This document shows positions 2,926-27,865 of a stretch of 64,000 nucleotides of DNA, in pieces. Every line of letters begins with the position of its first letter. The stretch's first letter is position 1. Below the pieces are notes generated by a model. It saw nothing but the letters and a program-made list of their open reading frames with translations, was not told where the DNA came from and did no database searches. The stretch is from a virus. Lineage: Duplodnaviria > Heunggongvirae > Uroviricota > Caudoviricetes. Where the stretch lies: the IMG/VR virus record IMGVR_UViG_3300043399_000561. The stretch is one strand, 5' to 3'. A program made the position numbers and the translations under genes.

Positions 2926-3597
2926 ATGCGCTTTAATGAATTTTCTCAGCCGCTAGACGAAGGCGTTCACGATCCAAATATCTTCAAAGCCGTGTTTATG
3001 GCAGGAGCCCCAGGTTCGGGCAAGACAACAGTTTCTAATCAGTTGTTTGCTGGGACTGGATTAAAGTCTCTGAATGTAGACGATTTCTATAACTACTTGC
3101 GGCAATCACAAAAAGCAGTGGGAGATCCAGAACAAGATTATGCTACTGCTTGGGAAAAGTACAGAAAAAGAGAGCAAAACTATCTAGATGGTCGCCTAGG
3201 ATTGATCATCGATGGCACTGGTAAAAACCCAGCTATTATGAATGATGTTAAGACTAAACTAGAAGAAATGGGATATGAGACTGCAATGGTCTTTGTCAAT
3301 ACATCATTGGATACTAGTTTAGAACGCACCACTCGTAGATCACAACGTCCCGGAAGAGATTATGGTAGACAGATTGATCCTAAGTTTGTAAAAGACACTT
3401 GGATGAGAGTTCAACAAGCATTAGGACAATTACAGAGTATCTTTGGAAACAGGTTCTTTATCATTGATAACAATCGCGGTGATCCCGATATTGCATATGT
3501 TCAGAAAACATTGGACAAATGGCTAAAAGCCAGTCCCCAATCCCACATCGCTAAAGAGTGGATCAAGAACGAGCTTCAAGCTAAGCAACAAAAATAG
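2926..3597 (+). CDS. P-loop kinase resembling the kinase domain of T4 polynucleotide 5'-kinase (Pnk-like); no phosphatase domain
   Basis: Walker A GAPGSGKTT. Downstream LIIDGTGKNP and RRSQRPGRD blocks parallel T4 Pnk VIISDTNLNP and RNSKRGTKA. 223 aa. Confidence 0.45.
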   Translation: MRFNEFSQPLDEGVHDPNIFKAVFMAGAPGSGKTTVSNQLFAGTGLKSLNVDDFYNYLRQSQKAVGDPEQDYATAWEKYRKREQNYLDGRLGLIIDGTGKNPAIMNDVKTKLEEMGYETAMVFVNTSLDTSLERTTRRSQRPGRDYGRQIDPKFVKDTWMRVQQALGQLQSIFGNRFFIIDNNRGDPDIAYVQKTLDKWLKASPQSHIAKEWIKNELQAKQQK

Positions 3598-3598
3598 T

Positions 3599-3674
3599 TG
3601 GTGGACCCTGTGGGGTTCGAACCCACGACCTACAGGTTAAAAGCCCGTTGCTCTACCTACTGAGCTAAAGGTCC
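3599..3674 (-). tRNA. tRNA-Lys(TTT)
   Basis: Cloverleaf with anticodon loop CTTTTAA, T-loop GGTTCGAAC, encoded CCA. Confidence 0.85.
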
Positions 3675-3680
3675 ATTATG

Positions 3681-3757
3681 TGGTGCGCCCGGGAGGATTC
3701 GAACCTCCGACCTTTCGATTATCAGTCGAATGCTCTAGCCAACTGAGCTACGAGCGC
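3681..3757 (-). tRNA. tRNA-Ile(GAT)
   Basis: Anticodon loop CTGATAA, D-arm AGCTCAGTTGGCTAGAGC, T-loop TTCGAAT, CCA encoded. Confidence 0.85.
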
Positions 3758-3763
3758 ATTAAT

Positions 3764-3841
3764 TGGAGCGACGGGTGTGATTCGAACACACGACTTTATT
3801 GCTTTGCAGGCAATTGCATTGGGCCTCTCTGCCACCGTCGC
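3764..3841 (-). tRNA. tRNA-Cys(GCA)
   Basis: Acceptor GCGACGG/CCGTCGC, anticodon loop CTGCAAA, T-loop TTCGAAT, CCA. Confidence 0.75.
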
Positions 3842-3859: not shown

Positions 3860-3888
3860 GTTATATCAACATTCAGGACGAATGTCAA
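3860..3888 (-). promoter_or_regulatory. sigma70-type promoter TTGACA-N17-TATAAC driving the Cys-Ile-Lys tRNA trio
   Basis: Minus-strand TTGACA at 3888-3883, exact 17-nt spacer, TATAAC at 3865-3860, ~10 nt upstream of the tRNA-Cys 5' end. Confidence 0.6.
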
Positions 3889-3889
3889 G

Positions 3890-5419
3890 TTATTTGTTAA
3901 GATATTTCCATAAATTTATGAAATAATTGTCTGCATATTCTGCTGATCTTCTTTTGATTTCTTCGCTTTCATCAACTTTTTTCAAAGAGGTCTTCATCAT
4001 TTCGTATGAATCGTAACCCAATCTTGTTAGACCTGCTGCCTGATATGGGTCTAGCTTTCGGCGGCCCGAATTATATATCTGACTATACTGGTTGCACATA
4101 AACTCAAACGCTGCTTTCCTGTCCCAAATGTCATTTTTCCAATTGTGGTACAACCCAGATGAACCTAACAATTCATATCCGTATTTTTTTGGATTTTTTA
4201 AAATGCTACTGTCATCATATTGTCCGGGACCAATTGATAAACACGAAAGGCTTAGCGCATCCATTGGAAAATCTTCATCAGATAACAATTCTATATTCTT
4301 CTCTGCTATCTCTGGCGTTTCGCCCGGAAGTCCTATAATATATCCTGCGCTTATACCCAAAGCAGTGTCGCTTTCTTCATAGATATCTCTTAGCTTATAC
4401 AATGTTTCTATATTTTTTTCAGGGGAGCCGCCCTTGCCTATAGCCTTAGCAGCAGGAGCGTGTAATGATTCTAACCCGAAAAAATAACCGTTAAAATTTA
4501 AATCCCTCAACATATACATCTGTTCAGGTTTAGCTGCTAATAAGTCTAATCTACAGCATCCCATAAATTTCAAATCAATTTTAGACTTGTCTCTAACATA
4601 AAGCATACGCTCTATGTTATCTGTGCGGTGATTAAAAGTATCGTCAATTATGATGTAGCTAGTTGTTCCAAAATTTTCATAGTTATACAAAACTTCTTCT
4701 AGAATACAATCTTCGTGTCTCATATACGAAAGGTCGTTTTTATTTTTACCTAAGAGTGGATAGGTACAAAAAGCACATTTAAAAATACACCCTCTCGATA
4801 CTTCTATAGGCAAAGACTCATTGTTTGTTACCCCATCATAGTGTTCCCATATGTGAGTGGAGTGCCTAAAATCAAACATATCACCTTTCATATCATATGA
4901 TATGTCGTACATAAAAGTTTTAGGATCGTAATGCGGAGCTCCAACTGTCTTACTATAGATAGGATCTTTGTTTTTCTTGATGCATTCAACAATGTCTAAG
5001 ATCATTCCTTCTCCCATACCTCGAACCACGTAATCTACATTAAAATTATGGTGCCGGCCGTGATCAAGCATAACATGGGTATTACCCCCACCGTAGATTA
5101 TCTTTATCTTTGGAAATTTAGTTTTTACGTATTCGTTAATAAGAGAAAATGTATCATCACCATCTTTAAAAGTAGAGACTATGCCCGGCCTACTATCATC
5201 CATAAACAAAGTACTACTATACCCTAAAAATAAAGTATCAGTGGATATTACCCTATCTAATAAGCGCAACAATTCAGTAGTTGACAAATGGCTCATATGA
5301 TCAATGACCAAAGCCGAATATCCAGATTTGCGCAGTACGTCAGCTATTCTATAAGCACCGAAGGGTTTAAACCTTGTAGTCCAGGTCGCGTCTGATAATA
5401 TCACTGCGTTGAATGTCAT
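3890..5419 (-). CDS. B12 (cobalamin)-binding radical SAM enzyme, paralogue 1
   Basis: N-terminal B12-binding-like domain; CxxxCxxC motif RGCIFKCAFCTYP; 509 aa. Confidence 0.7.
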   Translation of the reverse strand: MTFNAVILSDATWTTRFKPFGAYRIADVLRKSGYSALVIDHMSHLSTTELLRLLDRVISTDTLFLGYSSTLFMDDSRPGIVSTFKDGDDTFSLINEYVKTKFPKIKIIYGGGNTHVMLDHGRHHNFNVDYVVRGMGEGMILDIVECIKKNKDPIYSKTVGAPHYDPKTFMYDISYDMKGDMFDFRHSTHIWEHYDGVTNNESLPIEVSRGCIFKCAFCTYPLLGKNKNDLSYMRHEDCILEEVLYNYENFGTTSYIIIDDTFNHRTDNIERMLYVRDKSKIDLKFMGCCRLDLLAAKPEQMYMLRDLNFNGYFFGLESLHAPAAKAIGKGGSPEKNIETLYKLRDIYEESDTALGISAGYIIGLPGETPEIAEKNIELLSDEDFPMDALSLSCLSIGPGQYDDSSILKNPKKYGYELLGSSGLYHNWKNDIWDRKAAFEFMCNQYSQIYNSGRRKLDPYQAAGLTRLGYDSYEMMKTSLKKVDESEEIKRRSAEYADNYFINLWKYLNK

Positions 5420-5427
5420 ATCAGTAT

Positions 5428-6909
5428 TTAACTATATAGTTTTTTGATTTTTGAAAAATATTCTTGCTCTATCTTTACTTTTAACTCAGGTATATTAGGC
5501 TTTATAGTTTCGTCAAATGTTTTGAGTGGCATATCAATCAGGTCATCAAATTTTAGACCAAATCTTAAATAGCCGGCTATCGAAAAAGACGGAATCTTCA
5601 ATTTTCCAGAATCATACAGAAACAAGTTATAATGATTGGCAATCTCTGCACATTTATGATAGTCCCAAACATCGTTTTCCCAAAAAGGATCGTTTGTTAA
5701 TCTATACCCATATTTTTCAGGATTGGCGTATAAACTACTTTTACCAAATGCACTCTCACTCATCCATAATGGAGACAGTCCCACACAATCTACCGGAGAA
5801 TCATCTTCTATTAGACGATTTATCCAGTAATCTACTGTTTCCGGCGTTTCATATGGTAGACCAACGATATACCCTAGCATTAAGTTAACTTTATTGTTGA
5901 ATGCATTTTTGAGCTTATGCATTGTTTCAAACAATTCTTCGGCCGGAGCATACTTGCCTATAGCCTTAGCAGTCTTCTCATTTAGTGTTTCAACTCCAAA
6001 ATAGTGTCCGTTGAAGTTAAGGTCCTTAAGTAAACTTATTTGCTCTGGCTTCTTTGCAAGCAAATCTAACCTGGTATATCCTACAAAATTTAAATCTAAT
6101 TTTGTTCTGTCTCTTGCTCTTAGCAACAATTCTATTTTATCATTGCGTTCATTAAAAGTGTCATCTACGATCATATATGTAGTAGTATTGAACTTTTCAT
6201 AATTATACAAAAGTTCAGAGTACAGGGAATCTTCCAAACGTATATACGAGGTGTCTTGTTTGTGCATTCCTATTAAAGGAAAAGTACAAAATGTACATCG
6301 GAAAATACAACCTCTTGCAACTTCAAGAGGTAGGCATTCACCCTCTATTATAAAATCTGAATCGTGCCAAAAATGTGTAGAATGCTTATAATCATACAGC
6401 TTGCCTCTGAGGTCATATGAAATAACATAAGCACCATTTACTTTATAATCATAGTAGGGTTCAGTATCATTTGCTAGTGAGTTTACTAAGTCCAACATCA
6501 TAGATTCTGCGTAGCCTAATACAACATAATCAGTATACGTTTCTCGTATTTTTACGAGTTGTTCAAGAATTACATTACTATTGCTACCGCCCACTATAAT
6601 TTTTATATTAGGGTATCTATTCTTAATATGTTGATTAATTGCAACGAAATCATCGTCTCCGTTATCAAAGGGAACTTTATGATTTTTTTTACTATGAAAC
6701 AGGGTGGTACTGTAACCCAAGAATAAAGTATCATCAGTAATAATGATATCTAATAAAGCAAAAAGCTGGTCTAATGGCAATCTGGATACATAGTCTAATA
6801 CTTGTATTTCATACCCTGCTTTTCGCAGTGTATCAGCAATCGTATATGCGCCTAGAGGTCTAATTCTTTCATCAAATACTGCATCAGTGAGTATAACGCC
6901 GTGGATCAT
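5428..6909 (-). CDS. B12-binding radical SAM enzyme, paralogue 2 (tandem duplicate)
   Basis: CxxxCxxC motif RGCIFRCTFCTFP; same domain order and conserved blocks as the upstream paralogue; 493 aa. Confidence 0.7.
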   Translation of the reverse strand: MIHGVILTDAVFDERIRPLGAYTIADTLRKAGYEIQVLDYVSRLPLDQLFALLDIIITDDTLFLGYSTTLFHSKKNHKVPFDNGDDDFVAINQHIKNRYPNIKIIVGGSNSNVILEQLVKIRETYTDYVVLGYAESMMLDLVNSLANDTEPYYDYKVNGAYVISYDLRGKLYDYKHSTHFWHDSDFIIEGECLPLEVARGCIFRCTFCTFPLIGMHKQDTSYIRLEDSLYSELLYNYEKFNTTTYMIVDDTFNERNDKIELLLRARDRTKLDLNFVGYTRLDLLAKKPEQISLLKDLNFNGHYFGVETLNEKTAKAIGKYAPAEELFETMHKLKNAFNNKVNLMLGYIVGLPYETPETVDYWINRLIEDDSPVDCVGLSPLWMSESAFGKSSLYANPEKYGYRLTNDPFWENDVWDYHKCAEIANHYNLFLYDSGKLKIPSFSIAGYLRFGLKFDDLIDMPLKTFDETIKPNIPELKVKIEQEYFSKIKKLYS

Positions 6910-6922
6910 AATTTTATTTAAG

Positions 6923-7014
6923 TGGCGGAGAGTGAGGGATTCGAACCCTCGGAACCAGTTTCCCAGTTCGCCTTCTTAGCAGGAAGATGGTTTAAGCCAC
7001 TCACCCAACTCTCC
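6923..7014 (-). tRNA. tRNA-Ser(GCT), type II
   Basis: Anticodon loop CTGCTAA, long variable arm, T-loop TTCGAAT, CCA. Confidence 0.8.
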
Positions 7015-7020
7015 GTAGTT

Positions 7021-7440
7021 CTATATATTTAAATGCTGTTTAGCATTTTCAACATAACTTTCAATTCTTTCTTTTCCAACATTGTTCTTAGAATGCACTA
7101 TATATCTAGGAAACTTCTTTTGATTATTTACGCAATATTCAACTAACCATTTTGCGCAATCATATCCGGTTTTTTCCGGTCCATAATCAAAGGTCTTTAT
7201 TAAATCACCGTCGTTGTATGTATAAGAATCTGCCTGGGCATTCTCCTCTAACATAACTGCATAATGAAAGTCCGCTAAATCGTGGTCAAAACACACAAAC
7301 TTCGGCAAACCAAAAAACTCAACGTGTCTGACAAAACCGTCAAAGCTACGAGCTATAAAAATAGAATCATAGCGAGGAAACTCGGCCCACGTTACTTGAT
7401 CGGGCATTCTTTCGTCATCAAGAAATAAAACGTAAGACAT
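7021..7440 (-). CDS. Hypothetical protein (139 aa; start trimmed to MSYVLF to avoid overlap with tRNA-Ser)
   Basis: ORF track frame. The upstream 30 codons of the listed ORF are the tRNA-Ser(TGA) gene read in frame. Confidence 0.45.
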   Translation of the reverse strand: MSYVLFLDDERMPDQVTWAEFPRYDSIFIARSFDGFVRHVEFFGLPKFVCFDHDLADFHYAVMLEENAQADSYTYNDGDLIKTFDYGPEKTGYDCAKWLVEYCVNNQKKFPRYIVHSKNNVGKERIESYVENAKQHLNI

Positions 7441-7456
7441 TGTTAATCCTAATAGT

Positions 7457-8506: not shown

Positions 8507-8787
8507 TGGTATGAGCGGCGGGACTCGAACCCGCACGTCCAAAGGACACAAGATTTTCTTACCACTATAGCTTTCGCTACCCATTAGTTTGTGGTCTGGA
8601 CTATCCCTTCATCATATCATGACTGACTTAGATGCCTGCCGTCTAGTCTCTACACCTTCCCTTTCGGGCTTGGCTCGGGATCAGCATTTTACAGCCTTCC
8701 CCGAATTTGACAGGTTCTACTCTAGAGATTTCCCTCTAGGCACTCAAATTAATAAGTCTCGGGCGTCTACCATTCCGCCACGCTCAC
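8507..8787 (-). tRNA. tRNA-Leu(UAA) interrupted by a ~196-nt group I intron (exons 8754-8787 and 8507-8557)
   Basis: 5' exon is a Leu-type acceptor plus D-arm (GTGAGCG TG GCGGAATGGTAGACGCC CGAGA CTT). 3' exon is AAAA TCTTG, variable hairpin, T-arm and CGCTCAT A CCA. The intron sits between U34 and A35. Its sequence carries the conserved cores of the cyanobacterial/plastid tRNA-Leu IC3 intron (TTGAGT..CTAGAGGGAAATC, CAAATTCGGGGAA, GATCCCGAGCCAAGCCCGAAAGGGAAGGTGTAGAGACTAGACGG, AGTCCAGACC, GTAGCGAAAGCT, terminal G). Confidence 0.8.
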
Positions 8788-8847
8788 ACATTAAAACTTA
8801 ACCAACAATGTCAAAGAATAGAGTGTGTTTCTCACTCTGTATATCTC

Positions 8848-8876
8848 TTTATACGATATAATAGGATAAATGTCAA
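8848..8876 (-). promoter_or_regulatory. sigma70-type promoter TTGACA-N17-TATAAA upstream of the intron-containing tRNA-Leu
   Basis: Exact 17-nt spacing; a second TTGACA sits ~55 nt closer to the tRNA at 8814-8809. Confidence 0.5.
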
Positions 8877-9020: not shown

Positions 9021-9413
9021 TTAGAAGTGAACTACACCACTGTCAATGACAGGATGCTCATCGTCTGTGCGATCTACAATTGTGTAGGTGAATTTGGTTG
9101 TTCCAAACTCACGGAGCATATCTGAAACACTGTCTAGTGTGAAATCTTTACAAGAGTAAAGATCAAACTTGAAAAAGGATGGCTCACCAGACCAAAAATG
9201 AATGCTACTGTGACTAGTAGTAATGCCTACCATACCGGTAACACCTTCGTTACCTTCATCATCACAATATACGCAGATAGGATCAATCAATATTTTCATA
9301 TCAACTGCTTCAACCAATCGGCGGAACCAATCATTTAGTTGGGGAACATACTCTGGGCCAGGAGCCTCTGCTAGGTATCCTGTAACCAGGACGTGCTTAT
9401 TAACTTGAGCCAA
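9021..9413 (-). CDS. Pyruvoyl-type S-adenosylmethionine decarboxylase-like proenzyme (SpeD/SpeH family)
   Basis: Core motif VGITTSHSSIHFWSGE against the family consensus ESH(I/L)S(I/V)HTWPE; 130 aa, typical for the small prokaryotic class. Confidence 0.5.
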   Translation of the reverse strand: MAQVNKHVLVTGYLAEAPGPEYVPQLNDWFRRLVEAVDMKILIDPICVYCDDEGNEGVTGMVGITTSHSSIHFWSGEPSFFKFDLYSCKDFTLDSVSDMLREFGTTKFTYTIVDRTDDEHPVIDSGVVHF

Positions 9414-9491: not shown

Positions 9492-9566
9492 TGGTAGCGC
9501 CGAGGAATTCTGCCATCCTGACCTTTCGGGTGTAAACCGAATGCTCTACTTCTGAGCTACGGCGCC
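9492..9566 (-). tRNA. tRNA-Val(TAC) with non-canonical T-arm
   Basis: Anticodon loop TTTACAC and good acceptor, but the T-arm is a 4-bp AGGA/TCCT stem with a 9-nt loop TGGCAGAAT. Confidence 0.6.
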
Positions 9567-9757: not shown

Positions 9758-9786
9758 ACTATAACATAGGCAAATTCCTATGTCAA
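9758..9786 (-). promoter_or_regulatory. sigma70-type promoter TTGACA-N17-TATAGT upstream of tRNA-Ala
   Basis: Exact N17 spacing; -10 lies ~20 nt upstream of the tRNA 5' end. Confidence 0.55.
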
Positions 9787-10700: not shown

Positions 10701-10729
10701 ACTATAGCAGCCTGACAAATAAATGTCAA
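10701..10729 (-). promoter_or_regulatory. sigma70-type promoter TTGACA-N17-TATAGT upstream of tRNA-Asn
   Basis: Exact N17 spacing. Confidence 0.55.
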
Positions 10730-14036: not shown

Positions 14037-14195
14037 AAAAACTATTGACTGGCTGCGTCACACCTACGCGATTTAACAGGATAGACTGTCCTGACCAATC
14101 TTTAGTTTAGTAAAATAACAATGTCAAAGAATAGAAAGCATCGCTCTCTATAGTCTTGTTATAGCAAACAATGATAGTGTTGTCAACTATTATTT

Positions 14196-16833: not shown

Positions 16834-16907
16834 TGGTGCTCCCAGGAGGTACCGCCCCTCCGGCTCATCATTACCAATGATGTGTATTGCTTTTATACTA
16901 TGGGAGC
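16834..16907 (-). tRNA. tRNA-Thr(GGT) with non-canonical T-loop
   Basis: Anticodon loop TTGGTAA; T-arm GGAGG GGCGGTA CCTCC lacks the TTC; CCA. Confidence 0.6.
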
Positions 16908-17692: not shown

Positions 17693-17721
17693 ATTATATA
17701 TGCGATTGCATAAAATGTCAA
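17693..17721 (-). promoter_or_regulatory. sigma70 consensus promoter TTGACA-N17-TATAAT upstream of tRNA-Gln(TTG)
   Basis: Perfect -35 and -10 hexamers with 17-nt spacer; -10 lies ~20 nt from the tRNA 5' end. Confidence 0.6.
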
Positions 17722-19085: not shown

Positions 19086-19328
19086 TTATCCGCTTAACAA
19101 TTTATAAACTTCGTCGCAATCATTCAATATGCTGTTTAGTGAACGACCATTGCAACGAAGACCGAGCGTGTAAGCAGGGTCTTCAATTACCACGCCGAAC
19201 TTCCCATCATACATAATGAAGTCACCCTGGCGCAGAGTTTTGACATTACTAAAATCAACACGAGGTCCATATTTCATACCAATCTCCTTGCTATATCTCT
19301 TTATAGCAGTTTGAGCTTTCTGTGTCAA
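19086..19328 (-). CDS. Hypothetical protein (80 aa)
   Basis: ORF track. Confidence 0.4.
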   Translation of the reverse strand: MTQKAQTAIKRYSKEIGMKYGPRVDFSNVKTLRQGDFIMYDGKFGVVIEDPAYTLGLRCNGRSLNSILNDCDEVYKLLSG

Positions 19329-19353: not shown

Positions 19354-19914
19354 ATGAACTACGATAGCTTCTCTCACGGTCAAATCCAATCCAAACTATG
19401 GCTTTGCAAGGAGCTTGAAAAGTTTGTCCACGCTAACATCAAGATTGCTATCTTGGGTAGCTGGTACAATGTTTTATCGTTTATGCTTCTTACTAGGAAT
19501 GCGGACAGATATCAATATATTTTGGGCGTGGACCTTGACCCAGAGACAAAAGAAATTGCCGACAAGATCACCGAAGCGTGGCGAATCGGTAAGGATTATA
19601 AGGTTGAGAACATTATAGCGGACGCAAATCTTGTAAATTTAGCTGGCTACGACCTTGTAATCAATTGTTCACCTGAACACTTGACCGGAAATGATTGGTT
19701 TGAGAATCTTGAGTATGGCACTATGGTCTGCATTCAATCAAGCGATGTGCAGACAAGTGACGATGATGTTTGGAAGTGTGTCAATCCAAATGAAAGTTTG
19801 GAAGATTTGGTATTAAAATACCCGTTATCAAAGTATCTTTACTCCGGTGAAAAGGAGATAAGGTATACTGAGGATAACGGGTATAAAAGATTTATGCTGA
19901 TTGGAATCAAATAA
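19354..19914 (+). CDS. Hypothetical protein, possibly a Rossmann-fold methyltransferase
   Basis: Only plus-strand gene in this block. IAILGSW and ILGVDLDPE are weak matches to MTase motifs I and II. Weak call. Confidence 0.3.
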   Translation: MNYDSFSHGQIQSKLWLCKELEKFVHANIKIAILGSWYNVLSFMLLTRNADRYQYILGVDLDPETKEIADKITEAWRIGKDYKVENIIADANLVNLAGYDLVINCSPEHLTGNDWFENLEYGTMVCIQSSDVQTSDDDVWKCVNPNESLEDLVLKYPLSKYLYSGEKEIRYTEDNGYKRFMLIGIK

Positions 19915-21045: not shown

Positions 21046-22113
21046 TTAAAATGCAAGTGCGCTGTAATCGTACAGTACCTTTTCCTTGACACGAGTAAGA
21101 ATGAGCCTTGCACCCTTGCTTTCAAAGATAAACATTCCCTTCTGTGAATCCAAATTGATAAGATTTTCGGGAGTGAACTTAAACTCCTTCCATTCAGCCT
21201 CATCATTGTTAGGGTCAGTATCATATTCGATATTAACACCAGACACAGCAAGCGGGTTGCCTCGCCATTCACAGTATTCCAAACGCTCACTAGGAATTTC
21301 AGCACCACAATCAATGAGAGTGATATCGTACCTAGCACCACTGTCATATTCAGGCTTTGCGTTAAGCATTTCAAGTGCCTCACTCGGGCTTTCGTTATAT
21401 CGGTTCATTTCTTCAATAAGAGCCTTAAGCATATCAAAGTTGAACTCACCAAACAAACTCGTAAGACCACAAATTTGGTCAATATACTGCTTGTTATTAA
21501 GACGATCCTCACAATATTCACGAATGAAGGTTACATCAAGTCCCTTAAAATCAAGCAGGTAGAACAGTCGACCGGGGCGATTACGCATATGCTCATTGAC
21601 ACGCCACTTGTCATTCACGGTGAGGATGTAAAGCTTCTTACTACCGAATACACCATCAAGCAGTGTGAGGATTTCCTCCTGCTTGTCGCGGTCGTATACC
21701 TTCTCAAACTCATCAAAAAGAATGACGCACGGCTGATCAATATCCTGCAATAGCTTGAAGAAGCCATCACCAGTCCAATCACGATTGATCACGATAGTAG
21801 GGACGCCTTGCTTTGCAAGTTCGATAGAGATATTCTTAGCAAGCAGCGTCTTGCCACTACCCTTTTCACCGTTCAACAGAACACCCGTCTGCTGGGGACG
21901 GTCCCAAAACGAATTGATAATCCGATCAGTGTGACGGAGAGTATTACCGTACAACTTTGACGGAATTTCAAAGTTTTCAATCTGATCAAGATAGAAATTA
22001 CCAAAAGGATCTACCGCAACGGTATAGTTGCCTGCAGGAAGTTGCTCGTGTAGATTCATTGCTTCCTTGCTGGAAACACGAAAAGTAGTACCACTCTTAA
22101 GAAAGTATGCCAT
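21046..22113 (-). CDS. AAA+ ATPase
   Basis: Walker A LLNGEKGSGKTL; Walker B CVILFDEFEK; sensor-1 LTVND; Arg finger RPGRLFY. Confidence 0.7.
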   Translation of the reverse strand: MAYFLKSGTTFRVSSKEAMNLHEQLPAGNYTVAVDPFGNFYLDQIENFEIPSKLYGNTLRHTDRIINSFWDRPQQTGVLLNGEKGSGKTLLAKNISIELAKQGVPTIVINRDWTGDGFFKLLQDIDQPCVILFDEFEKVYDRDKQEEILTLLDGVFGSKKLYILTVNDKWRVNEHMRNRPGRLFYLLDFKGLDVTFIREYCEDRLNNKQYIDQICGLTSLFGEFNFDMLKALIEEMNRYNESPSEALEMLNAKPEYDSGARYDITLIDCGAEIPSERLEYCEWRGNPLAVSGVNIEYDTDPNNDEAEWKEFKFTPENLINLDSQKGMFIFESKGARLILTRVKEKVLYDYSALAF

Positions 22114-22491: not shown

Positions 22492-23865
22492 TCACTTGTT
22501 AGCGTTTGCCCGAACTTCGTCAAAAGTCATATCACGAACAAGAACACCATTTTCAAAAACTGCTTCAAGCATATCCGTAGCAAAAATGTATTCACGGTCA
22601 TCGCTACGAACAGTATGGTACGTTCCATCAACAAACTTGATCAGCTTGAGCTTACCCTTCTTGCTCTGCTTGCCCTTGTCAGTGATCGGGTCCTTGAAAA
22701 CATCAACCCACTTACCATCAACAAGTGCCGCGCTGCACTTCATAGCGAAGCGGAAATCATCTCTATTCACAGTCTGAAGTAACATTCCGCCCTGACCGAA
22801 AGCCACATTGTCAGCACTGTAACCAGCAAGCGTGATCGTGTAGAGAATGCTACGAATAGTCTGGTGATTGATGCCGTCACCCTGCAAGACACGGACATTG
22901 TTCAATACCTTGTAGCCCTTGTCATTAACAGTGTGACCAAAGTTCTTGTCAAGAATCTTGAGGCACTTGCAGACAACATCAGCTGGATCTCCCGAGTCAG
23001 GACGAACAACAAGAGTAGCACCACTATCAAGAACATCCTGCTTAAGTTCGGTACCCCACATTTCGCAAGCAGCGAAAATGTCATAGCTGTCCGAAACACA
23101 AGCAAAGATACCACCTGGCTTTGCGTTCTGTTTGATCATATTGCGATAGCTGTCAACCTCGTGTTCACGCCCCCAGCTGGTTACAGTGCTGTGTTCCATT
23201 GCAGGAACGCTAAACCCAGCCATGTCAGCATTGTAATAACGACGGGCAAAAAGCAGAGCCTCAACGGTGTCGGTCCCTTGAAAATTAACCAAGTGCGCGG
23301 CACCACCAATTCCTGCACTTTCCAAACTGCTAACCCCACGAGCACCGAAATCGTGAAGTTTAAAATCAATAGTAGTAGGATCACCAGTTTTCTCCAGATA
23401 TTCAAGAATCAATTTCTTGTTTTCATAGCTGTTAGTAGCAACAGTAGTAGGATACCAAATTGCACGAAGCAGCGCCGTTTCGAGGAACGAAGTCAGCCAG
23501 TAACAGTTAGGATCAGTGTTTTCAATCGTAACGAGAACATTACCAGTAGGAATGACAAGACCCTCAGGTGCTGCTTTAATGCGAACAGGAAGATATCCGT
23601 TATGTTCTAGAAGAATGTAAATCCAGCCTTCTCGATTAAAAGGTTCGCCGTGTGCTGTAATGATAGCTTCCGCTTCTTGGATCATTTCAAGCGTAATCGG
23701 GGTAAGCAAATATTCCTTAATAAAGGCCTGAAGTCCGAAGAAAACAGTAGCATCGTGTTTGCCACCGCGGCTTTCAATGTAGCTGTAGATACCAGTTGTG
23801 TTGGGAGGGTATTGATTGAACTGCGAATACTTATAGCTATCCGCGTTAAGAATAATGTTGTGCAT
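22492..23865 (-). CDS. nadV: Nicotinamide phosphoribosyltransferase (NAMPT / NadV)
   Basis: Extensive colinear identity to NAMPT: DSYKYSQFNQYPPNT, VPEGLVIPTGNVLVTIENTDPNCYWLT, LHDFGARGVSS, HLVNFQGTDTV, SVPAMEHSTVTSWG, VVRPDSGDP. Confidence 0.9.
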   Translation of the reverse strand: MHNIILNADSYKYSQFNQYPPNTTGIYSYIESRGGKHDATVFFGLQAFIKEYLLTPITLEMIQEAEAIITAHGEPFNREGWIYILLEHNGYLPVRIKAAPEGLVIPTGNVLVTIENTDPNCYWLTSFLETALLRAIWYPTTVATNSYENKKLILEYLEKTGDPTTIDFKLHDFGARGVSSLESAGIGGAAHLVNFQGTDTVEALLFARRYYNADMAGFSVPAMEHSTVTSWGREHEVDSYRNMIKQNAKPGGIFACVSDSYDIFAACEMWGTELKQDVLDSGATLVVRPDSGDPADVVCKCLKILDKNFGHTVNDKGYKVLNNVRVLQGDGINHQTIRSILYTITLAGYSADNVAFGQGGMLLQTVNRDDFRFAMKCSAALVDGKWVDVFKDPITDKGKQSKKGKLKLIKFVDGTYHTVRSDDREYIFATDMLEAVFENGVLVRDMTFDEVRANANK

Positions 23866-23920
23866 AATAGAACTCCTCTATTTAAAATGCTAGCTTCTAT
23901 CAGCTAGACTTGATGATTGA

Positions 23921-23948
23921 CTATAACAAATCTCTAGCAGAATGTCAA
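23921..23948 (-). promoter_or_regulatory. sigma70-type promoter TTGACA-N17-TATAGT upstream of nadV
   Basis: Exact N17 spacing; about 45 nt upstream of the NAMPT ATG. Confidence 0.5.
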
Positions 23949-24541
23949 CCGAATTCTACAAGGGTGACGGACCCGCCCTTACTAGAAACCTTTTCAGCAA
24001 AGTCTTCAATCATCGCAATGATGCGATCCTTATCACCCCCTGCAAGTCCCATACCGATGTAGGGGAAGCCGAAATTAAACATTTCCCCACCAAGTTGTCG
24101 GGCAGGCTTAGTTGCAGTTTGCCATGCCTTGGTATTTCCCTTGCCTGACCTCCAGCGAGTTTCAGCAAGTTCATTAGCAACCTTAGCACTGTCTTCGGAA
24201 TGTGCTACCTTTTCATACAGTGTGTCAAGAATGCGCTGGAATGCTTCATATTCAAAATGATCCTTGTCACGAGGTGCAAAGTCATATTGAGTATACGCAT
24301 TCACTATGAGAAAAGGATTATCCGCTTTTTTTACTACTTCAAGAGAGAAGGTACCTAGTTTGTCCCTATCACTCTTTACCGTAGCAAGGTCAGCTTCATA
24401 TGCCTCCGGATATCGTTCACGAATCTCCTTAGCGATTCCAGAACCCATCGTGTGGTGACAATTACAACCATGAACTATCACAGTGAATTCTCCCTGTTCA
24501 GCGAGGTCAATGAGATTTCCCTTAGTGTGCTTAAGCATCAT
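23945..24541 (-). CDS. Macro-domain protein (ADP-ribose / ADPR-1''-phosphate binding or processing)
   Basis: GNLIDLAEQGEFTVIVHGCNCHHTMGSGIAKEI matches the GDIT..AIVNAAN..L.GGGV macro core; C-terminal FPYIGMGLAGGD glycine motif. Confidence 0.65.
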   Translation of the reverse strand: MMLKHTKGNLIDLAEQGEFTVIVHGCNCHHTMGSGIAKEIRERYPEAYEADLATVKSDRDKLGTFSLEVVKKADNPFLIVNAYTQYDFAPRDKDHFEYEAFQRILDTLYEKVAHSEDSAKVANELAETRWRSGKGNTKAWQTATKPARQLGGEMFNFGFPYIGMGLAGGDKDRIIAMIEDFAEKVSSKGGSVTLVEFG

Positions 24542-24741
24542 CGTCTCCGATCCGTGAAAACATTTTTACCGCATTGCGGGCACTTGATGCCGCGATCAAC
24601 CGAATAATCACCTAAATAATCGTAGCTGTGCTTGATGGACTGCACTTCACTCTGGGTATATTCTAGAACCGAAGCACAAGACCAACAAGTAACACGATGG
24701 ACGGCTGATTCGTCTCTTCCTACAACCTTAACCATAATCAA
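24538..24741 (-). CDS. Small zinc-ribbon protein (CxxC...CPQC)
   Basis: 67 aa; CWSC and CPQCG pairs; start and stop overlap both neighbours (coupled). Confidence 0.45.
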   Translation of the reverse strand: MIMVKVVGRDESAVHRVTCWSCASVLEYTQSEVQSIKHSYDYLGDYSVDRGIKCPQCGKNVFTDRRR

Positions 24742-25787
24742 AGCCCCAGAAAATATTGAATGATATGAAAGTGATCATCAAACAGGTCTTCCTCACGAAG
24801 ATCACCAATCGGTACCCACTTTGCCTTTTCAGCATCGTCAGCACCCTTCACCTTTGGCAATGTAACATCGTCTGCCAACTTGAAGTGGTATGCCTTCGTG
24901 ATAACACGACCAAGCGTAGAACGATAAGGATCGTCAAAGGTTTGATGGTCACGAATGCTACCACGCAATACAGCTTCCGGAACCTTGATCTTGGTTTCTT
25001 CACGAAGTTCACGAATAGCACCATCAAGCTGACGCTCAAATTCGTTTAGGTGACCGCCAGGCAATGCCCACAGTCCCTTACCAGGTTCTGCTTTACGCTT
25101 GACAAGCAGGATGTGACCACTCTGTTCAACTACTGCATCAACAGTGGCGTGCTTCACAGGATAGGGCGAAACTTCCCACTGCTTCTTGTAGTTACGAACG
25201 AACTTAAGTTCACTCTGCAATTGCTTAAAAGCATCGGTGTTATAAAAGTTTATAATGAACTGTAGAACGCTTTCAGGAATAGCATCATTATGAATAAACT
25301 CTCCCGACAACCACTTCTCCCGAATATAGGTAGCGTGAACATCAGCCTGAATCTCAACATTCACCGAGCGAAACTGTGGGAACATCTTTAGATAATAGCT
25401 GGTGTTATCCTTGCTAGCACCGATCAATCCAACCTTAGCATCGTTGAATCCATTTGCGCGGAAGCCGAAGTTGTTGACAACATCAAGCACAGTGTCCTTA
25501 ACGATATGCTGAACCTGATTGATCCAGGCAGCTTCGTTATATGTCTTGTCATAGAGTGGCTTGATGATCAGCCTAGATGCATCTCCGCCGCGCATAGCAC
25601 CAAAAATCATATCTGCTCGTTCTTGGAACGTGAATGGGTTACGGATCGTGCGGGCCTTACCTGCCGAACCTACGAGAACCAATACATTTTTAGATTTTTG
25701 TAGCGCAATATCGATAATACGCTTATGCTCGTTGTGTAGTGGCTGAAACCTACCTACAAAGACCAATAGGTCAAACTCTTTTTCCAT
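24738..25787 (-). CDS. natV: Bifunctional NMN adenylyltransferase / Nudix hydrolase (NadM-Nudix, NatV-like)
   Basis: N-terminal GRFQPLHNEH (HxGH nucleotidyltransferase motif); C-terminal Nudix box GGHLNEFERQLDGAIRELREETKI. Confidence 0.85.
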   Translation of the reverse strand: MEKEFDLLVFVGRFQPLHNEHKRIIDIALQKSKNVLVLVGSAGKARTIRNPFTFQERADMIFGAMRGGDASRLIIKPLYDKTYNEAAWINQVQHIVKDTVLDVVNNFGFRANGFNDAKVGLIGASKDNTSYYLKMFPQFRSVNVEIQADVHATYIREKWLSGEFIHNDAIPESVLQFIINFYNTDAFKQLQSELKFVRNYKKQWEVSPYPVKHATVDAVVEQSGHILLVKRKAEPGKGLWALPGGHLNEFERQLDGAIRELREETKIKVPEAVLRGSIRDHQTFDDPYRSTLGRVITKAYHFKLADDVTLPKVKGADDAEKAKWVPIGDLREEDLFDDHFHIIQYFLGL

Positions 25788-27171: not shown

Positions 27172-27329
27172 ACTAATTCTTCAACGACACCAATTATTTC
27201 AGCAAGCAATAACATTCCCGCAAGAACGGCAATTGAACCCGTTCCCCAAGCTACAGCACATCCTAAAATACGAATGCCGCTCTTTGCAAAACTAATAATC
27301 TGATGCAGTCTAGGATCAGGCTGTTCCAT
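27168..27329 (-). CDS. Small hydrophobic protein (53 aa), translationally coupled to the peroxiredoxin gene
   Basis: MEQPDPRLHQIISFAKSGIRILGCAVAWGTGSIAVLAGMLLLAEIIGVVEELV. Its ATG overlaps the peroxiredoxin TAA as TAATG. Below the ORF-track size cutoff. Confidence 0.35.
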   Translation of the reverse strand: MEQPDPRLHQIISFAKSGIRILGCAVAWGTGSIAVLAGMLLLAEIIGVVEELV

Positions 27330-27865
27330 TATTCACCTCGCAAATAAGCAAGAACATTTTCAGGTGAAGTTTCACCATATGGGTCAGTTGTGCAGTTATG
27401 CTCAATGCCGGGCTCAATGAACCACTTTTCAATAACACCATTATCGATAATAACTGCATAGCGCCAAGAACGAACACCAAATCCAAGATTGTCCTTCTGA
27501 ACAAGCATATTCATCTGGCTAGTGAAATAACCAGAACCATCTGGAATAACCTTAACATTCTGCAATCCTTGATCTTGCGCCCACTTATTCATAACAAAAC
27601 TGTCATTCACAGAAACACAGTAGATTTCATCAATCCCGAGTTCCTTGAACTTTTCATAGTTCTGTTCAAAGCCCGGAAGCTGATAAGTTGAGCAAGTTGG
27701 GGTGAACGCTCCGGGGAGCGAAAACAATACTACTCGCTTACCTGCGAAATAGTCGTAACTTGATACATCCTGCCAGCGATAGGGATTTGGTCCTTCAATA
27801 GAATCATCACGGACACGAGTCTTAAAGACTACAGCAGGAACAATTTGTGGAAGTTGATCAGTCAT
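27329..27865 (-). CDS. Peroxiredoxin, Prx5-like (glutaredoxin/thioredoxin-dependent thiol peroxidase)
   Basis: Peroxidatic Cys motif LPGAFTPTCS; 178 aa. Confidence 0.75.
   Translation of the reverse strand: MTDQLPQIVPAVVFKTRVRDDSIEGPNPYRWQDVSSYDYFAGKRVVLFSLPGAFTPTCSTYQLPGFEQNYEKFKELGIDEIYCVSVNDSFVMNKWAQDQGLQNVKVIPDGSGYFTSQMNMLVQKDNLGFGVRSWRYAVIIDNGVIEKWFIEPGIEHNCTTDPYGETSPENVLAYLRGE

Follow-up and report, generated by a model that had tools for sequence, protein, structure and literature searches.

Tandem class-B-type radical SAM genes of an almost virus-only family in the tRNA array of an uncultured large phage

RESULTS

A radical SAM gene pair within a phage tRNA array

Two adjacent genes, rSAM-A and rSAM-B (A and B below), in a 64-kb window of phage DNA (the whole stretch that was analysed) almost certainly encode a class-B-type radical SAM (rSAM) pair from a viral family. 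The family is almost virus-only and functionally uncharacterised, and residence in a tRNA array is specific to the clade to which the window belongs. The two co-oriented genes encode proteins with 44% identity across 484 residues (E=7e-145). The open reading frames, this identity and the flanking tRNAs bear out the sequence-only reading of the locus as a tandem paralogous class-B-type pair inside a phage tRNA array. The source is an uncultured large phage: tail fibre/baseplate genes, a class Ia RNR, HNH endonucleases and NAD salvage genes are present in the window, and relatives were found on T4-like contigs, which further supports a phage origin. The features of the locus are listed in Table 1.

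Table 1. Features of the rSAM locus and its surroundings (positions in the 64-kb window)
Feature	Position	Strand	Description
Zeta-toxin/AAA_33 P-loop kinase	2926..3597	+	End of array, opposite strand
tRNA-Cys(gca), tRNA-Ile(gat), tRNA-Lys(ttt) cluster	3599..3841	-	48 bp downstream of rSAM-B
tRNA-Cys(gca)	3764..3841	-	First tRNA after rSAM-B
Sigma70-type promoter TTGACA-17-TATAAC	3860..3888	-	Directly after the rSAM-B stop, ahead of tRNA-Cys
rSAM-B	3890..5419	-	509 aa, ATG start; B-type paralogue, 8 bp past the A stop codon
C211-x3-C215-x2-C218 of B	4766..4789	-	Codons for CxxxCxxC
N-terminal Rossmann (B12-binding-like) domain of B	4970..5419	-	PF02310 18.5 bits, cutoff 32.1; RGMGEG variant
rSAM-A	5428..6909	-	493 aa, ATG start; A-type member of the viral class-B-type radical SAM family
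[4Fe-4S]/SAM site of A, C201-x3-C205-x2-C208	6286..6309	-	Codons; motif unchanged across 98 family sequences
N-terminal Rossmann (B12-binding-like) domain of A, residues ~1-150	6460..6909	-	PF02310 31.3 bits, cutoff 32.1
tRNA-Ser(gct)	6923..7014	-	Ends 13 bp before rSAM-A begins
cREC_REC (cyclic-phosphate processing receiver) protein	7021..7443	-	PF20274 64.6 bits, cutoff 27; phrog_1479
Sigma70-type promoter TTGACA-17-TATAAA	8848..8876	-	Nearest strong promoter upstream of the rSAM pair

Radical SAM core and relation to named families

Both proteins matched the Pfam model Radical_SAM (PF04055; cutoff 29.5 bits), A with 63.9 bits and B with 51.5 bits, and the partial TIM-barrel fold was present, which places A and B in the radical SAM superfamily. 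The CxxxCxxC cluster that had been predicted for each protein was located at C201/205/208 in A and C211/215/218 in B. There is one such site per protein, and it was 100% conserved among 98 family sequences, in which no conserved cysteine lay outside it and the N-terminus offered none for an auxiliary cluster. The AF2 model of A (pLDDT 93.4) showed a largely helical C-terminal region, and the viral family has its own conserved C-terminal motif, NPEKYGY...W. No TRAM, THUMP, PUA or other RNA-binding Pfam domain was matched in A or B.

The curated NCBIfam cutoffs for named class-B families range from 250 to 650 bits; the scores of all these families against the pair were 20 to 81 bits, none reaching cutoff. 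The best match of A was the lipid biosynthesis B12-binding/radical SAM model (rSAM_ladder_B12; 81 bits vs a cutoff of 360), the PhpK model scored 64-66 bits (cutoff 600), and the best of these weak matches were mostly methylases (PhpK, HpnR, RiPP C-methyltransferase and MCR glutamine C-methyltransferase). A host-derived BchE, HpnR or PhpK identity was rejected, together with BzaD, HpnJ, MCR glutamine C-methyltransferase, RiPP C-methyltransferase and ladderane-type identities, all far under the NCBIfam cutoffs. YgiQ/UPF0313, the JGI label for the viral family, was also rejected (TIGR03904, 10.6 bits vs a cutoff of 462 for B, with A absent from the matches), as was a MiaB/RimO/MtaB methylthiotransferase (TIGR00089, 18-19 bits vs a cutoff of 251), whose three conserved N-terminal auxiliary-cluster cysteines and C-terminal TRAM domain are missing from the pair; the same two absences set the viral family apart from the RimO/MiaB/MtaB structures (PDB 4jc0, 7mjv). 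These profile scores and the near virus-only family indicate that A and B are not ordinary host metabolic enzymes, the outcome that the sequence-only reading had named against itself.

Another explanation is that A and B are auxiliary metabolic enzymes whose substrate is a lipid or a small molecule, with methylation of a membrane lipid or of a cofactor as examples, much like the hopanoid- or ladderane-type class-B enzymes, and that the tRNA location is incidental. The best match of A and the matches to HpnR, BzaD and PhpK agree with it, and genes for a fatty-acid desaturase, a P450, an AMP-binding enzyme, a Trp halogenase and Rieske proteins adjoin members of the family. We consider it unlikely, however: the matches lie far under their cutoffs, the neighbours just named are mostly lineage-specific and do not occur in the window, and a borrowed metabolic gene would not usually belong to a family that is essentially missing from cellular genomes.

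The N-terminal domain and cobalamin

An N-terminal B12-binding domain had been assigned to each protein. The class-B motifs of such a domain are indeed conserved, whereas the PF02310 scores fall below the cutoff in both A and B. The motifs in A are PLG..A..LR..GY.V, G107-G108 and D127..G132 (A numbering), and the same motifs are kept in B; GG, PLG..A..LR..GY.V and D..V.G.(G/A)E are near-invariant across the divergent viral family. Residues G20, R29, G32, G107-G108, D127 and G132 were 91-100% conserved despite family divergence to ~30% identity, a pattern that favours a functional pocket for a cofactor. Precomputed PF02310 matches exist for about one-third of the family members.

In structure comparison, the fold was equidistant from TsrM, MgmA and CysS on the one hand and the B12-free RimO, MiaB and AprD4 on the other. 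Cobalamin dependence had therefore been over-read, since PF02310 is sub-threshold and the fold is equally near B12-free enzymes. No cobalamin riboswitch or other Rfam element was found near A and B, and the window as a whole yielded neither a cobalamin riboswitch nor cob/btu genes; a CobS identity for the AAA ATPase at 21046-22113 was rejected.

Among the known enzymes compared, TsrM (PDB 6wtf/6wte), a cobalamin-dependent tryptophan C2-methyltransferase, showed 15-16% identity with no significant sequence-profile match; it acts on a free amino acid and is not known to use a 5'-dA radical. The viral family, by comparison, keeps the canonical CxxxCxxC and its own C-terminal motif. MgmA (PDB 9ccb), the methyl-coenzyme M reductase glutamine C-methyltransferase, is archaeal, acts on a protein side chain and shares 18% identity; A and B scored 24-28 bits against its family model TIGR04014 (cutoff 360). 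AprD4 (PDB 6fd2), a diol dehydratase of the rSAM superfamily, carries a B12-like domain, acts on a small molecule (aminoglycoside) and is reported not to use cobalamin.

AprD4 is the model for a further possibility, that A and B keep a B12-like scaffold without the cofactor and perform non-methylating radical chemistry (dehydration, rearrangement or cross-linking). This concerns the chemistry only and is combinable with any substrate. It appears rather unlikely: the N-terminal motifs are far more conserved than expected of a vestigial domain, staying near-invariant in a very divergent family, the N-terminal domain of A aligns motif-for-motif with the cobalamin domain of MgmA, the PF02310 matches extend to about a third of the family, and auxiliary-cluster cysteines are missing from the N-terminus. 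From the conserved motifs, use of cobalamin by A and B is plausible, and we lean slightly towards cobalamin-dependent methyl transfer as their activity.

An almost virus-only family

The family was sharply bounded and comprised 1,169 clusters at 50% identity and 561 IMG/VR loci. No member was found among 50,697 GenBank phages; tblastn against these genomes returned no homologue of A at 1e-5 or of B at E<=10, and megablast of the region returned tRNA fragments only. No PHROGs family matched A or B, and PADLOC gave only a generic 38-bit match to the candidate PDC-M51A. About 20 cellular homologues were found; MAG contigs account for most of them, and one locus, in Halomonas, lies among small ORFs. 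The operon context of the cellular homologues, the Halomonas locus included, was uninformative.

The earlier statement that no such phage system has been characterised held in the GenBank-phage and literature searches, the latter finding no characterised phage class-B rSAM and no rSAM of a tRNA array. At the level of the superfamily, rSAM-rich uncultured T4-like phages have already been noted: Nishimura et al. (2017) described marine T4-like viral genomes with an A-type Fe-S carrier and up to 12 rSAM genes (PMC5332604), and IscA/rSAM islands in loci of the present family match those genomes. Two uncultured Caudovirales phage proteins, A0A6J5LFT0 and A0A6J5LDK6, are members of this family and share its fold (TM 0.87 and 0.80). 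For these proteins and the Nishimura genomes, the literature describes neither a function nor a subfamily, a tRNA-array clade or an A/B pairing.

The subtypes recur elsewhere. An A-type orthologue (P0002) is 53% identical to A, and a B-type orthologue (P0008) is 63% identical to B and shares K258N, RGMGE and two insertions with it. Contig L118, from another phage, repeats the module A-B-tRNA-Cys...Lys, and paired rSAM copies recur in seven independent lineages of the family. Judged by these sequence relationships, A and B are subtypes of long standing that arose by an ancient duplication and are each under separate constraint. Sequential modifications by A and B are plausible because the two are distinct conserved subtypes.

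Association with tRNA genes and transcription

All 35 tRNAs of the window lie on the strand of the rSAM pair. A strict motif search found 11 sigma70-type promoters on the minus strand and none on the plus strand; a generic promoter/terminator scan gave counts equal to shuffles. From the promoter at 8876, a unit of ~5 kb would probably run through tRNA-Leu(intron), tRNA-Glu, small ORFs, tRNA-Tyr, tRNA-Met, tRNA-Ser, cREC, tRNA-Ser, rSAM-A and rSAM-B. The cREC_REC gene thus sits between two tRNA-Ser genes inside the putative transcription unit of the pair.

In the clade of the window, defined as copies at least 40% identical to A, 11 of 14 copies lay within 1 kb of a tRNA, vs 14 of 175 in the rest of the family. 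Family-wide, 9 of 39 independent lineages lay no more than 3 kb from a tRNA, and at least two other clades are likewise embedded in tRNA arrays. The arrays of these phages also carry unrelated cargo (TctC, DctP, peptidase S11, Trp halogenase, fatty-acid desaturase and HNH endonucleases). What the sequence-only reading took as a link to nucleic acids is therefore one of co-location: it stands for the clade of the window and does not extend to the family as a whole or set the pair apart from other cargo. The co-location may reflect only an accessory-gene region and vertical inheritance of the rSAM-Ser(gct)-Cys(gca)-Lys block.

Neighbouring genes and other substrates

The clade of the window has no conserved protein partner, and tRNAs are its only recurrent neighbours; the cREC, kinase and AdoMet_dc-like genes of the window were not conserved with rSAM in other loci. 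In the wider family, other rSAMs, PP-loop ATPases, cupin hydroxylases and IscA occur as neighbours, and none of the partner enzymes (cupin, PP-loop, other rSAMs) was found in the 64-kb window.

These wider neighbours bear on a reading of the pair as accessory cargo that C-methylates or radically modifies protein side chains of phage or host, in the manner of MgmA/Mmp10 (MCR) and PoyB/PoyC (RiPPs), with the array as an accessory-gene store. Twitch-domain rSAMs (NF033640, 283 bits), Asp/Arg beta-hydroxylase cupins, PP-loop/Asn-synthase-like ATPases, GNAT proteins and methyltransferases are together characteristic of peptide/protein tailoring; the best PDB sequence match is to MgmA, which is also among the top fold matches, RiPP C-methyltransferases are matched weakly, and the arrays do hold unrelated cargo. 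We nevertheless regard protein modification as doubtful, since the tailoring partners are absent from the window and unconserved in its clade, no precursor peptide or RiPP-recognition element was identified, and the contrast in tRNA proximity between this clade and the rest of the family is left unexplained.

Hypermodification of phage DNA bases for restriction evasion is highly improbable. Relatives do occur on T4-like contigs with dNMP kinase and dCMP deaminase, QueC-like/PP-loop proteins adjoin family members, and a phage rSAM acting on DNA exists, M6 gp53, but that enzyme is SPL-like and not class B (PMC8989533). Near the pair there is no DpdA, 5-hmdU kinase or glycosyl/aminoacyl-transferase module, and no DNA-metabolism neighbour is conserved in the clade of the window.

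DISCUSSION

The methylations catalysed by class-B radical SAM enzymes are chemically demanding, and substrates are known for very few of these enzymes. In the mechanism that we propose for A and B, the [4Fe-4S] cluster would cleave SAM to give a 5'-deoxyadenosyl radical, which would abstract a hydrogen atom from an unactivated carbon; methylcobalamin in the N-terminal domain would donate the methyl group, and a second SAM would re-methylate the cobalamin. The two proteins would be produced early, from a host-type promoter and on a precursor transcript common with six tRNAs. Their target for radical C-methylation would be a ubiquitous macromolecule, not a pathway intermediate, and A and B would serve two sites or steps, or two subsets of the same substrate type. 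The leading single candidate would be tRNA, phage-encoded and/or host, with the C-methyl on the base or ribose.

We propose only tentatively that tRNA or another RNA is the substrate. The proximity contrast, the spacing of 13 and 48 bp, the promoters at 8876 and 3888 and the lack of a conserved protein partner point to tRNA, whereas the lack of an RNA-binding module, the mostly helical C-terminal region, the distance of most of the family from tRNAs and the unrelated array cargo point away from it. The acidic pI of A and B (5.2 and 5.7) is uninformative as an indicator of RNA binding and at most weak evidence against an RNA substrate. Giant viruses encode the tRNA-modifying rSAMs Elp3 and MtaB, which we take as a precedent. 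The cobalamin-dependent class-B rSAM RlmX methylates rRNA ribose C5', placing a 5'(S)-C-methyl on D2449/Cm2498 of E. coli 23S rRNA, and so C-methylates RNA backbone carbons (review, PMC13602947); it differs in being a cellular enzyme with an rRNA substrate, and is likened to A and B by the described chemistry alone. The complete proposal, which is unlikely to hold in every part, is that A and B would form the first virus-encoded cobalamin-dependent RNA C-methyltransferase system, co-transcribed with phage tRNAs and adding one or two C-methyls (base or ribose backbone) to phage and/or host tRNAs, with tuned decoding or resistance to host anticodon nucleases as the effect.

The family is large, nearly exclusive to viruses and without a member among cultured phages, which means that cellular biology offers no function to transfer to it, and the clade of the window has long been resident in phage tRNA arrays as a conserved two-subtype pair. 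If the tRNA reading is true, the pair would represent a novel pathway of RNA modification and add another layer to the contest between phage and host over tRNAs; if it is false, a virus-specific protein or lipid modification would be indicated. Either outcome would begin to account for the many radical SAM genes, along with Fe-S carriers, of aquatic T4-like phages.

A tandem radical SAM pair among phage tRNA genes

Two radical SAM ORFs of the window, rSAM-A (A) and rSAM-B (B), were separated by 8 bp in the same orientation and flanked by tRNA genes. The proteins were 44% identical across 484 residues (E 7e-145), and each contained a single cluster site (CxxxCxxC) and exceeded the Pfam Radical_SAM cutoff of 29.5 bits (A, 63.9; B, 51.5), which bears out the tandem pair amid tRNA genes proposed in the sequence-only reading. 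An N-terminal B12-binding domain, also proposed there, was upheld in part: the N-terminal pocket was conserved, but the Pfam B12-binding model scored below its 32.1-bit cutoff for both proteins (A, 31.3; B, 18.5), a near-threshold result. Cobalamin-independent chemistry, a question separate from that of the substrate, is a less probable but real alternative. The base composition of both genes was typical of phage.

Features of the window
Feature	Position	Strand	Details
rSAM-A	5428-6909	-	493 aa, ATG start
rSAM-B	3890-5419	-	509 aa, ATG start
tRNA-Ser(gct)	6923-7014	-	End 13 bp ahead of rSAM-A start codon; ARAGORN, Rfam
tRNA-Cys(gca), Ile(gat), Lys(ttt)	3841-3599	-	Onset 48 bp past rSAM-B stop codon; ARAGORN, Rfam
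Sigma70-type promoters	3860-3888, 8848-8876, 9758-9786, 10701-10729, 14158-14186, 17693-17721, 19300-19328 and four more	-	Strict motif search; 8876-8848 closest upstream of the pair, 3888-3860 directly past rSAM-B stop
Zeta-toxin/AAA_33 P-loop kinase	2926-3597	+	Edge of tRNA array
cREC_REC protein (PF20274)	7021-7443	-	"Cyclic-phosphate processing receiver" domain; flanked by two tRNA-Ser genes
tRNA-Leu(UAA)	8508-8793	-	Uncalled by ARAGORN
Group I intron (RF00028)	8577-8764	-	65.7 bits; within tRNA-Leu(UAA)
AdoMet decarboxylase-like gene (PF02675)	9021-9413	-	Within tRNA array
Extra tRNA	9495-9566	-	Rfam, 48.9 bits
tRNA, UAU anticodon	12177-12267	-	91-92 nt, long variable arm (type II-like)
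Extra tRNA	16837-16907	-	Rfam, 48.5 bits
Methyltransferase-like ORF	19354-19914	+	186 aa; Rossmann motif (ILGSWYN...VDLD)
NAD salvage module	22492-25787	-	NAMPT and NMNAT-Nudix fusion, macro-like gene in between
Peroxiredoxin-like gene	27329-27865	-
tRNA, CUA anticodon	27883-27957	-	Amber suppressor (ARAGORN "Pyl"); isolated, 10 kb off array

A virus-restricted family

Candidate identities were rejected on NCBIfam scores: 20-81 bits against cutoffs of 250-650 for the named class-B families (ladderane-type lipid rSAM, PhpK, BzaD, HpnR, HpnJ, BchE and MCR Gln/RiPP C-methyltransferase), and just ~10-19 bits for MiaB/RimO and YgiQ. No PHROG family was matched by A or B, PADLOC gave nothing beyond a generic 38-bit match, and among 50,697 phage records from GenBank no homologue appeared, with hits admitted up to E<=10. 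An exhaustive profile search recovered 1,169 cluster representatives (50% identity) at E<=1e-30, clearly separated from the 16,022 at 1e-10; 561 family loci were confirmed in IMG/VR, and at least 546 were detected in a metagenome scan. BFVD contained two proteins of the same fold (TM 0.87 and 0.80) from "uncultured Caudovirales phage", annotated just as COG1032/Radical SAM. The 185,579 cellular species genomes gave ~20 genuine relatives, almost all of them from MAG contigs. Since no named family was matched and cellular genomes nearly lack relatives, the family is virus-restricted and uncharacterised, and A and B are not the ordinary host-derived metabolic enzymes that would have refuted the sequence-only reading. 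Radical SAM enzymes that carry a B12-binding-type domain are already known as a kind; the literature searched contained no description of the viral family, its tRNA-array clade or the conserved A/B pair, and, as the same reading had supposed, no characterised phage system.

A and B as old subtypes

By neighbour joining, A and B came out as mutual nearest relatives, yet deeply split. Separate orthologues, P0008 of B type (63% identical to B, 44% to A) and P0002 of A type (53% to A vs 40% to B), indicate that the split is older than the window phage. B and P0008 had two insertions in common, as well as K258N, RGMGE and GLPGETPE, changes at sites that are otherwise nearly invariant; A-type proteins shared a change at G320. 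Contig L118 repeated the module, with an incomplete A-type gene and, 8 bp on, a B-type gene, followed by tRNA-Cys(gca)...Lys(ttt). Two to three adjacent family copies occurred in 7 of 39 independent lineages (rSAM <=60% identical). Therefore, A and B are distinct subtypes under separate constraint, not a decaying duplicate.

Residence in tRNA arrays

The contigs of the nearest relatives were T4-like, with RegA, dNMP kinase and clamp genes of the gp44/45/62 type, and the rSAM lay within tRNA arrays, invariably on the tRNA strand. A tRNA lay within 1 kb of 11 of the 14 copies at >=40% identity to A vs 14 of 175 more distant copies; the association is specific to the window's clade. By independent lineage, 9 of 39 had a tRNA within 3 kb, and at least two further clades were array-embedded (L035/L088, L080/L186). 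The tRNA identities beside the rSAM differed, and an rSAM...Ser(gct)...Cys(gca)...Lys block recurred in the window, L003/4, L009, L121, L122 and L118, so part of the tRNA signal reflects vertical inheritance. tRNA genes were the sole recurrent neighbours in this clade, with no common protein-coding neighbour beyond close relatives. TctC, DctP and peptidase S11 genes were likewise present in arrays, and even close relatives could have a halogenase/desaturase next to them (L119) or belong to a cupin/rSAM island (L006). The array thus also serves as an accessory-gene region, and such unrelated cargo makes co-location a weaker guide to function.

Neighbours in the wider family

Outside this clade, neighbours tallied per independent lineage included other rSAMs (18 lineages; one cluster, c1, is a true N-terminal twitch-domain rSAM, NF033640, 283 bits), PP-loop/Asn-synthase/TilS-like ATPases (16), Asp/Arg beta-hydroxylase cupins (10) and an IscA-type Fe-S carrier (5-6). 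Methyltransferases, a fatty-acid desaturase, P450, an AMP-binding enzyme and a Trp halogenase were more confined to single lineages. None of these partner genes was present in the 64 kb window. This phage-encoded IscA/A-type Fe-S carrier (c25; TIGR00049, 101 bits) lay directly upstream of the family rSAM in L010, L011, L013, L023, L024, L030, L031 and others, which suggests that phages provide Fe-S clusters for their own radical enzymes. Different, additional radical SAM genes shared the array or island in L002 (3002-4240), L006 (323-1333 and 8293-9675) and L008 (1-881); L006 combined three rSAMs with cupins, a QueC-like protein and a Rieske protein. These neighbourhoods agree with T4-like marine viral genomes rich in rSAMs and encoding an Fe-S carrier (Nishimura et al. 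2017, PMC5332604).

Other features of the window

The window belongs to a large tailed phage (tail fibre/baseplate proteins, class Ia RNR, NAD salvage genes, several HNH endonucleases) distant from all cultured phages (NrdA <60% identity). ARAGORN called 35 tRNA genes, all on the strand of A and B; two Rfam tRNAs and the intron-split tRNA-Leu bring the total to ~38. The intron lies inside the anticodon (U34/A35; 5' exon end ...GAGACUU, 3' exon onset AAAAUC...ACCA), the classic cyanobacterial and plastid arrangement, and may hint at the host or the source of the tRNA. The long-variable-arm UAU tRNA, an odd pairing for an AUA decoder, was shared with the array of a distant relative (L001/L002, 9685-9776). 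Alongside the CUA tRNA, 4 of 37 long ORFs still ended in TAG, and the long ORFs were intact, thus giving no sign of genome-wide recoding.

The cREC_REC and Zeta-toxin/AAA_33 genes are of RNA-repair type, and neither was kept beside the rSAM in other loci. An AdoMet decarboxylase-like gene also occurred near the rSAM in a T4-like relative (L003/L004, 8451-8813), too divergent for a tblastn link. The methyltransferase-like ORF had zero Pfam or NCBIfam matches and was homologous (27-39% identity) to cluster c7, a protein encoded 3-8 kb away from family rSAMs in 17 further viral loci; apart from rSAMs and HNH endonucleases, it was the sole window gene recurring in such loci.

Near-consensus promoters (TTGACA-N16-18-TATAAT-like, often TTGACAT) numbered 11 on the minus strand and 0 on the plus strand, splitting the array into several transcription units. 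The two promoters bracketing the pair place it distally in one putative unit, an early unit of ~5 kb with six tRNAs, two small ORFs and the cREC_REC protein, which would be co-transcribed.

Proposed mechanism and target

SAM would be cleaved to a 5'-dA radical that abstracts a hydrogen atom from an unactivated carbon, and methylcobalamin would donate the methyl group; methyl transfer is suggested because the nearest families, though weak matches, are mostly methylases. A and B may act at two sites or in two steps. Because no pathway partners travel with the rSAM, the most likely target would be something present in every infected cell, and tRNA is the only such target with contextual support. 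RlmX, a cobalamin-dependent rSAM (PMC13602947), is a precedent for RNA as substrate, its own target being rRNA, and viral Elp3/MtaB are another for an RNA-directed reading. We tentatively rank tRNA/RNA first among possible substrates. Counted against tRNA are the lack of an RNA-binding domain in A and B, the acidity of both proteins, the lack of family-wide tRNA association and the cargo-rich arrays. A protein or peptide substrate is rather improbable, as is a lipid or small molecule, and DNA would be very improbable. Phage-encoded cobalamin-dependent C-methylation of tRNA, taken as a whole, is doubtful. Sequence alone assigns no function to the A/B pair, which is a clear lead and cheap to test.
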